Below are positions 26,479-26,625 of a stretch of DNA of 64,000 bases, piece after piece. The translations under genes and the position numbers were made by a program. This DNA is from Escherichia phage Ec_Makalu_003. The stretch is taken from the sequence record MN882349.1, one strand, 5' to 3'. Positions within the stretch are counted from its first letter, which is position 1; each line of letters starts with the position of its first letter. A model generated the notes under the pieces. The model saw nothing but the letters and a program-made list of their open reading frames with translations, made no database searches and had not been told where the DNA came from.

Positions 26479-26625
26479 ATAGGGAAGGTAGCGAATCTTC
26501 CTTGTCTCCAACCTGCTAGCGGCCTAGCAAGTGAATGCTTTAGCGTACCGGATCGCCCATACGCTGCAATAAATGCGGCTAGGTGACGTCCAAATCATTC
26601 TAACCGCGCTGTCTTTAGTTCACTA
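26479..26625 (-). ncRNA. candidate structured non-coding RNA region (not a recognisable tRNA)
   Basis: about 150 nt with no ORF; four consecutive hairpins; lies where T4 carries its tRNA/stable-RNA cluster. Confidence 0.25.

Follow-up and report, generated by a model that had tools for sequence, protein, structure and literature searches.

T4-type phages are among the best-studied viruses, yet the roles of their RNAs C and D are still unassigned. In T4, eight tRNA genes together with rnaC and rnaD are located 1.4-3 kb downstream of gene 57B on the same strand. The function of both RNAs is unknown, and as of 2010 a function had not been worked out for any trans-acting regulatory RNA of T4-type phages (PMC3014915). 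Control by "two transcripts, two folds" has been described for the T4 genes e, soc, 49 and I-TevI (PMC3014915). For RB49, the absence of tRNA genes has been reported (PMC1524935), and phages of this type carry promoter/stem-loop cassettes termed PeSL (PMC2839356, PMC4122927).

The DNA analysed in this work, a window of 64,000 nucleotides, is placed by blastn (98-99.5% identity) in Krischvirus, the RB49/phi1/JSE/GEC-3S group of T4-type coliphages. According to the annotation of GEC-3S and RB49, its minus strand carries, in order of transcription, 57B, small early genes including dmd, RB49p118 and then the interval studied here (26479-26625, 147 nt), which lies 1.84 kb downstream of 57B. On the 3' side of the interval follow a terminator and an early sigma-70-type promoter (26397-26425, minus strand; TTGACA, 17 nt spacer, CATAAT) that belongs to the next gene, RB49p117. 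The endolysin gene lies about 3.5 kb beyond this. The gene immediately upstream (26626-26844, minus strand) is the RB49p118 homologue. It encodes a hydrophobic protein of 72 aa (PHROG 15168), is the final gene of the early operon that includes dmd and ends in three in-frame stop codons, TAA TAG TGA, the latter two of which fall at the start of the interval. The interpretation that we consider the most probable, and hold with moderate confidence, is that the minus strand of the interval specifies a structured small RNA peculiar to Krischvirus, which would be present at the 3' end of an early RNA and is also predicted as a late transcript. The element is thus a plausible new genus-specific phage sRNA or structured 3' UTR that had previously gone unannotated.

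Several neighbours of the interval merit mention in their own right. The 57B homologue (28465-28935, minus strand) is labelled "RNA ligase" in RefSeq; recent records describe its closest T4-type relatives as anti-CBASS phosphodiesterase Acb1, and the two H-x-T/S motifs of 2H phosphoesterases are present in the window's protein. The dmd gene is located 0.7 kb downstream of it in a neighbouring early transcription unit. On the other side of the interval, the 61-aa gene at 26165-26350 (minus strand) is RB49p117 (DUF7421, PHROG 7717), homologues of which, 72-80% identical, occur in coliphages of about 50 kb and in Shigella phages (damhaus, vojen, tonn, SH6 and others). We take these phages to be T1-like, and the distribution of the gene suggests exchange between unrelated lytic coliphage groups. 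The endolysin is not homologous to T4 e (PMC3014915); judged from its sequence it looks like an M15-type peptidase, and its gene is preceded by a late promoter box with one mismatch, TCTAAATA (23054-23061, minus strand), 26 nt upstream of the start.

An initial reading, made from the sequence and its open reading frames, had described the interval as an ORF-free stretch between a gene stop and a strong terminator, folded on the minus strand into four consecutive hairpins. Both statements are borne out. There is no credible minus-strand ORF: the sole ORF of at least 30 aa touching the interval is a 36-aa frame with a GTG start (26595-26705) that overlaps the upstream gene out of frame. The terminator that follows (26451-26478, minus strand) has the form AAGCCACTC-TTCG-GAGTGGCTT plus T6, that is a 9-bp stem with five G-C pairs, a UUCG loop and a U6 tract, and the same terminator is annotated in the records of GEC-3S, G37-3 and G5211. 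At seven of nine terminator-like sites on the minus strand the distance between stop codon and terminator is 0-10 nt, and 4-11 nt is usual in the window; here it is 147 nt, and the two exceptions among the nine are exactly the two intervals to which the sequence-only reading had drawn attention, 26479-26625 and 15694-15921.

All four hairpins are present in the minus strand, and computational folding agrees with them. Hairpin 1 (26575-26607) is formed by GCGGTTAG..CTAGCCGC and consists of an 8-bp stem (GCGGUUAG/CUAGCCGC), an inner 4-bp stem and the loop UUGGAC. Hairpin 2 (26542-26565; AGCGTA..TACGCT) has a stem of 6-7 bp, AGCGUA(U)/(G)UACGCU, and a tip (26548-26559) that varies freely. Hairpin 3 (26507-26535), (TTCAC)TTGCTAG-GCCG-CTAGCA(G.GTTGG), possesses an interrupted stem of 12 bp and the loop GCCG, and hairpin 4 (26483-26501), GGAAG-AUUCGCUAC-CUUCC, exposes a loop of 9 nt, AUUCGCUAC. 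A GGAG motif in the linker between hairpins 3 and 4 (26506-26509) starts within the 3' arm of hairpin 3. A second pairing is available to the loop of hairpin 4, with UAGUGAA at the 5' edge of the interval, and is referred to as the closing stem in the following. The minimum free energy of the 147 nt corresponds to z = -2.8 (2 of 200 shuffles), that of the 147 nt with the terminator added to z = -3.9 and that of the predicted 172-nt transcript to z = -4.5. Of 134 equally long minus-strand tiles spanning 14 to 34 kb, the one with the interval has the lowest energy (-51.9 against -30.3 +/- 6.5) and the third-lowest z. As the plus strand of the interval folds nearly as well (z -3.1), energy by itself does not fix the strand.

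Information on the strand is provided by the substitutions found in related sequences. In hairpin 2 the stem changes convert an A-U pair to G-U, a G-C pair to G-U and, by compensatory exchange in two contigs, a G-C pair to A-U; in hairpin 4, A127G yields a G-U pair in one contig lineage. Overall, A61G, C83U, C81U and A127G lead to G-U pairs and G62A combined with C83U leads to the compensatory A-U pair (two contigs), such that pairing is retained in a minus-strand RNA. Read in a plus-strand transcript, the same five stem changes would be A-C mismatches, and this speaks for a minus-sense RNA. Across the alignment 99.3% of the pair cells are paired, compared with 29-46% when partners are slid against each other. 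The stems of hairpin 1 show no variation at all in the sequences examined, and the hairpin has one loop change (C38U); the stem of hairpin 3 is invariant except for C93A in one isolate, its single unpaired cell, and its loop reads GUCG in one Logan contig. Since these two stems hardly vary, they are neither supported nor contradicted by covariation. Of the 38 pairs, one is doubly changed and four carry one-sided changes to G-U. The sample is small, and the observed covariation score is reached by only 10 of 500 shuffles. Covariation is thin, and the structure is therefore supported mainly by energy and by the one-sided G-U changes.

The only ORF inside the interval comprises 24 aa and starts from an AUG within hairpin 1. 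It is frameshifted by indels of 1-2 nt in the tip of hairpin 2, the variable sites in its frame are non-synonymous with no synonymous variation seen, and translated searches of the interval returned nothing outside the genus. Taken together, these observations show the interval to be non-coding, and by computed folding it forms four hairpins ahead of an intrinsic terminator.

The interval was found in Krischvirus alone, and there in every record retrieved. Using blastn against 50,697 phage records, the 147 nt were found as a single copy in 58 records, all of them Krischvirus, at 96.6-100% identity, and no match was obtained outside this genus. In E. coli genomes and plasmids the terminator hairpin alone is matched and the interval is not; GTDB genomes gave 0 matches to the interval, and IMG/VR contains no relatives of it outside Krischvirus. 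Eleven metagenome-derived copies from IMG/VR, a JGI/ENA metagenome scan and Logan represent somewhat more divergent relatives; the metagenome scan contributed three Krischvirus-like contigs with the interval and no relatives beyond the genus. Diversity was assessed on an alignment of 21 sequences and recomputed on 19 of them, two problem contigs being left out. When the tip of hairpin 2 is set aside, pi amounts to 0.017 with 12 of 136 sites variable; the adjacent gene reaches 0.195 at third and 0.057 at first and second codon positions, so that the interval is about 11-fold less diverse than neighbouring third positions. Loops and linkers, for instance GGUUGGAGACAAGG between hairpins 3 and 4 and the loops of hairpins 1 and 4, show the same invariance as the stems. 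The one apparently unconstrained part of the element is the tip of hairpin 2: it occurs as 11 alleles in the 21 sequences, with indels of 0, +1 or +2 nt, and at pi ~0.20 it is level with the neighbouring third codon positions and seems to evolve roughly neutrally. A diversification hotspot was considered for this tip and rejected, its diversity being that of the neighbouring third positions.

As judged from the aligned sequences, this pattern demonstrates strong purifying selection on the interval everywhere but in the tip of hairpin 2, and every sequence compared comes from a single, shallow genus in which mosaic recombination occurs. In contigs where identity to the window falls to 83-92% for the upstream gene, it is 94-96% for the interval and 96-98% for the downstream gene. 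Mosaic recombination, or a recently spread block, could accordingly lie behind part of the low diversity.

A feature that the sequence-only reading had missed adjoins the 5' edge of the interval. The octamer TATAAATA (26627-26634, minus strand), made up of the last two codons and the stop of p118 (TAT AAA TAA), is a perfect match to the T4-type late promoter box; the gp55 consensus spans positions -13 to -6 (PMC1524935). From this box, transcription is predicted to start at about 26621 and to stop at the U-tract near 26450, resulting in an RNA of about 172 nt. The window contains six other perfect boxes, all of them 28-34 nt upstream of a start codon with a purine-rich, Shine-Dalgarno-like stretch; by position relative to the RB49 annotation they precede rI and genes 53, 9, 18, 22 and 23. 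The box at 61697, in front of gene 22 (a 264-aa ORF of the late region), likewise arises from TAT AAA TAA at the end of the gene before it. Another 25 kb of RB49 contains five perfect boxes, of which four are found 21-38 nt before a start and the fifth lies in an ORF-free stretch after gene 23. None of the perfect boxes is situated within a gene body; all are just upstream of gene starts or in ORF-free DNA. Sequences with at most one mismatch to TATAAATA are depleted on both strands (77 observed against 127 +/- 10.6 in dinucleotide shuffles, 100 of 100 shuffles being higher). As the genome thus seemingly avoids stray boxes, the box at 26627-26634 is likely to be active. It is kept in all aligned sequences but one. 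In MAVA01000028.1 (3325-3345), two extra A's and a 14-nt deletion have removed the late box and the first two stops; there the upstream ORF ends at the third stop (TGA), and the structured interval is intact. The box does not appear in the HMM-based list of 17 RB49 late promoters published in 2006 (PMC1524935). Scoring of boxes by their flanks was uninformative, with true sites ranging from -15 to +1.6 and the box of the interval at -8.1.

Two other late boxes are embedded in unusual surroundings. Outside the window, at 94996-95003 (plus strand) of RB49, a perfect box follows the terminator of gene 23 and is succeeded by about 340 nt of ORF-free DNA before RB49p162. This box is included in the published list of predicted RB49 late promoters; the stretch behind it gave no Rfam match at E<=0.1 and is possibly a second late non-coding leader or RNA. 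Within the window, a 9-bp hairpin, CCCCAGAUU...AAUCUGGGG (16600-16670, minus strand; z = -5.3), is located upstream of the start of rI (ATG 16609). Its loop contains the late promoter TATAAATA (16643-16650), and the purine-rich, Shine-Dalgarno-like run of rI lies in and just after its 3' arm. This is the arrangement of the T4 genes e and soc, almost in textbook form: the ribosome-binding site would be hidden in early read-through RNA and exposed in late transcripts.

From these elements a two-route model can be put forward. Early in infection, the RNA would be made as the 3' end of the dmd-to-p118 transcript; late, the putative gp55-type promoter TATAAATA would give rise to the RNA of about 172 nt (26621 to ~26450) with five hairpins. 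In the early read-through RNA, UAGUGAA could pair with the loop of hairpin 4 and form the closing stem; a late transcript from about 26621 would be devoid of most of the UAGUGAA segment, and hairpin 4 would form instead. By analogy with T4 RNAs C and D, such a compact RNA capped by a terminator would be expected to accumulate stably. Because loops and linkers are as invariant as the stems, we regard a trans-acting RNA with a specific partner, be it protein or RNA, as more probable than a simple spacer. Such an RNA could, for example, serve as a decoy or sponge for an RNA-binding protein or nuclease of host or phage, or as a regulator in the shut-off of early functions. A search for RNA partners in the 64-kb window yielded no complement of at least 12 nt to the interval, and RNAduplex against the 114 translation-initiation regions in the window gave -38.3, no better than shuffles (-36.7 +/- 2.6). 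In its most specific version, namely a late-expressed genus-specific sRNA with a dedicated gp55 promoter that acts in trans, the proposal appears rather doubtful.

The alternative that survives best, though we still deem it unlikely, is that the interval works in cis alone, as a structured 3' UTR of the early dmd-to-p118 operon, with neither a function in trans nor a transcript of its own. It could protect against 3' exonucleases or allow staged processing, for example through RegB cleavage at the single-stranded GGAG between hairpins 3 and 4. RegB cuts at GGAG (PMC3014915) and regB is present in the genome; moreover, an early transcript running to the terminator must include the interval, and the contig that has lost the late box has retained the interval. 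On the other hand, the other early units in the window need only a terminator 4-10 nt after the stop, and the invariance of loop and linker nucleotides over about 135 nt exceeds what a generic stabiliser needs. The perfect late box at the exact 5' edge would furthermore have to be a coincidence, for which we estimate a chance of ~0.002 (a 40-nt target with 5.9 boxes expected per window).

An improbable variant makes use of the same box in a different manner: the late promoter would re-express p117 and the genes beyond it, and structure and terminator would set the level of read-through as in a leader or attenuator. The succession of late box, structure and terminator fits this notion, no further strong terminator occurs on the minus strand between 26457 and 21530, and the box after gene 23 of RB49 with its ORF-free leader of about 340 nt provides a possible counterpart. 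Inspection, however, revealed no antiterminator pairing with the arms of the terminator, which with its 9-bp stem, five G-C pairs and U6 is a strong one; p117 is already served by the early promoter, and the endolysin gene downstream has a near-consensus box of its own, TCTAAATA.

A DNA-level element, that is a protein-binding, recombination or origin-like site composed of inverted repeats whose folding as RNA is incidental, is very improbable. The inverted repeats do fold on both strands, and the interval adjoins a PeSL cassette, a motif for which a role in modular recombination has been proposed (PMC2839356). Yet the stem changes keep G-U pairs in the minus-sense RNA and break pairing in DNA and in the plus strand, the interval is single-copy unlike the PeSL repeat, and its G+C content (0.49 vs about 0.39) renders it unfit as an unwinding element.

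The location of the interval raises the question of a relationship to tRNAs and to RNAs C and D. It had been proposed to lie at the position of the T4 tRNA/stable-RNA cluster, and with respect to synteny this holds: like rnaC and rnaD, it maps to the early strand, in the tRNA region bounded by 57B and the lysis gene, and in a Bragavirus and two T4-like contigs from IMG/VR 7-8 tRNAs are encoded 0.75-5 kb downstream of 57B on the same strand. Kinship with the members of that cluster finds no support from covariance model, alignment or Rfam. The failure to assemble a cloverleaf by hand was confirmed by ARAGORN, which detects 0 tRNAs in the window and 7-8 in each of three related T4-like loci; a tRNA or tmRNA is rejected on this basis. 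The tRNA and covariance-model scans that had been suggested as checks were negative throughout: the Rfam tRNA model does not match even at E<=10, and Rfam 15 as a whole produced 0 matches at gathering scores in the entire window. At E<=10 only weak, sub-threshold matches to sRNA families appeared (12-23 bits against thresholds of 41-100), and in the three displayed as alignments most of the match is due to the terminator hairpin. Mimicry of CRISPR repeats was considered, since TTCACT followed by a hairpin resembles type I-F repeats, and rejected, no CRISPR-DR family being among the E<=10 matches. Since Rfam holds no model for T4 rnaC or rnaD, a direct comparison was made. A covariance model (R1) built from 16 Krischvirus sequences recovers the element alone and nothing in the T4 tRNA/rnaC/rnaD locus, the Bragavirus locus or other T4-like contigs. 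In Smith-Waterman local alignments to 34 tRNA and RNA C/D sequences the score did not exceed 16, compared with a shuffle maximum of 19.8 +/- 2.2.

That the interval is a decaying relic without present function deserves very little credence, whether the relic is a tRNA or RNA C/D that has degenerated since the loss of an ancestral tRNA cluster or a piece of a gene like the second gap. It would be in keeping with the position syntenic to the tRNA clusters of relatives and with the second gap, which proves that gene remnants occur in this genome. The interval also has a 10-mer, CGGTTAGAAT, in common with what we take to be the D-arm of E. coli tRNA-Asp, a resemblance at chance level. Against a relic speak the roughly 11-fold reduction in diversity, which is the opposite of neutral decay, the fact that 48% of the shuffles match or beat the alignment score of the interval, the lack of any tRNA signal in ARAGORN and Rfam or of hits of the covariance model in tRNA regions, and the lack of translated similarity beyond the genus.

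The second gap itself (15694-15921, minus strand) had been described as ORF-free and situated between a gene stop and a terminator. The stop, that of rI.-1, and the terminator are indeed there; the gap is not strictly ORF-free and contains a 50-aa ORF (15770-15922). It is variable within Krischvirus, where only 50 of the 58 records match 80% or more of the query, and phi1 has a different insertion at this position. In phage Brandy (MZ504876), an intact gene for a protein of 715 aa (NPJJOOEL_00082, no PHROG hit) starts 22 nt after rI.-1. KNTSINTTIWLPHTFACSITAESEDPSKTRKGYHWK of the window aligns with KNTTINSQIWLPHTFECSIVAESDDPEKRRKGYLWKK of Brandy, and a 2-nt gap puts it out of the ATG frame. 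What is left is a frameshifted 5' remnant of some 36-40 codons (roughly 15780-15887) that stops short before the terminator. Judged from this alignment, the second gap is the remnant of a gene deleted in most Krischviruses and not a companion RNA.

Translation of a 13-24-aa peptide from the AUG that lies in hairpin 1 is hardly credible, for although this codon is placed +29 nt after the late box and hence within the +21 to +38 range of late genes, it is buried in the hairpin behind a poor Shine-Dalgarno sequence (GG only), the variable positions in its frame are non-synonymous, and the tip indels would, from our reading of the aligned sequences, give products that differ between phages, at about 15, 24 or 60 aa.

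RB49-type phages have lost all tRNA genes and retain, in the same zone, one tightly conserved RNA-like element. Possibly equipped with its own late promoter, this element offers a clean and easily deleted test case for the role of such RNAs. Krischviruses are present in phage-therapy collections, and an unannotated conserved element is therefore worth adding to their annotation; phi1 was isolated for phage-therapy use (PMC2839356). The negative results are useful as well, in that a hidden tRNA is excluded for the element and the second gap turns out to be a commonplace remnant of a gene.

Comparison with known systems places the element between several of them. The terminator and early promoter just downstream form a PeSL cassette; the interval itself is single-copy, upstream of the cassette and outside the repeat. 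Several metagenome and Logan contigs stop at this terminator/early-promoter repeat, 170-250 nt past the p118 stop codon, as expected of a repeat, and assemblies evidently break at the roughly 10-copy PeSL cassettes. As in e, soc, 49 and I-TevI of T4, the putative late promoter is placed such that the late RNA would lack a 5' segment of the early read-through RNA. In those genes, however, the hairpin masks the ribosome-binding site of a downstream gene, whereas no ORF follows in the interval. In bacteria, sRNAs such as DapZ, MicL and CpxQ derive from 3' ends and share the terminator of an mRNA, some of them having an internal promoter. The interval resembles them in sitting after a stop codon, in ending at the Rho-independent terminator of an operon and possibly in having two sources, read-through and a promoter that overlaps the 3' end of the preceding ORF. 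It differs in that no seed-target pairing was found for it in the 64-kb window and in that its putative promoter is of the phage gp55 late type instead of depending on a host sigma factor. The closest counterparts with respect to location are T4 rnaC (species 1, 139 nt) and rnaD (species 2, 119 nt), which are likewise small, structured and non-coding, of similar size and encoded on the same strand and in the same zone of the genome, after 57B and ahead of the lysis gene. Similarity in sequence or structure to either of them is not apparent. T4 rnaC is co-processed with tRNAs, sits within the tRNA cluster and has a tRNA-like T arm, CCGGGTTCGAATCCCGG; the interval has no T arm, and the 9-nt loop of its hairpin 4 is not a T loop. 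The Krischvirus element, in contrast to rnaC, stands alone and ends in an intrinsic terminator of its own.
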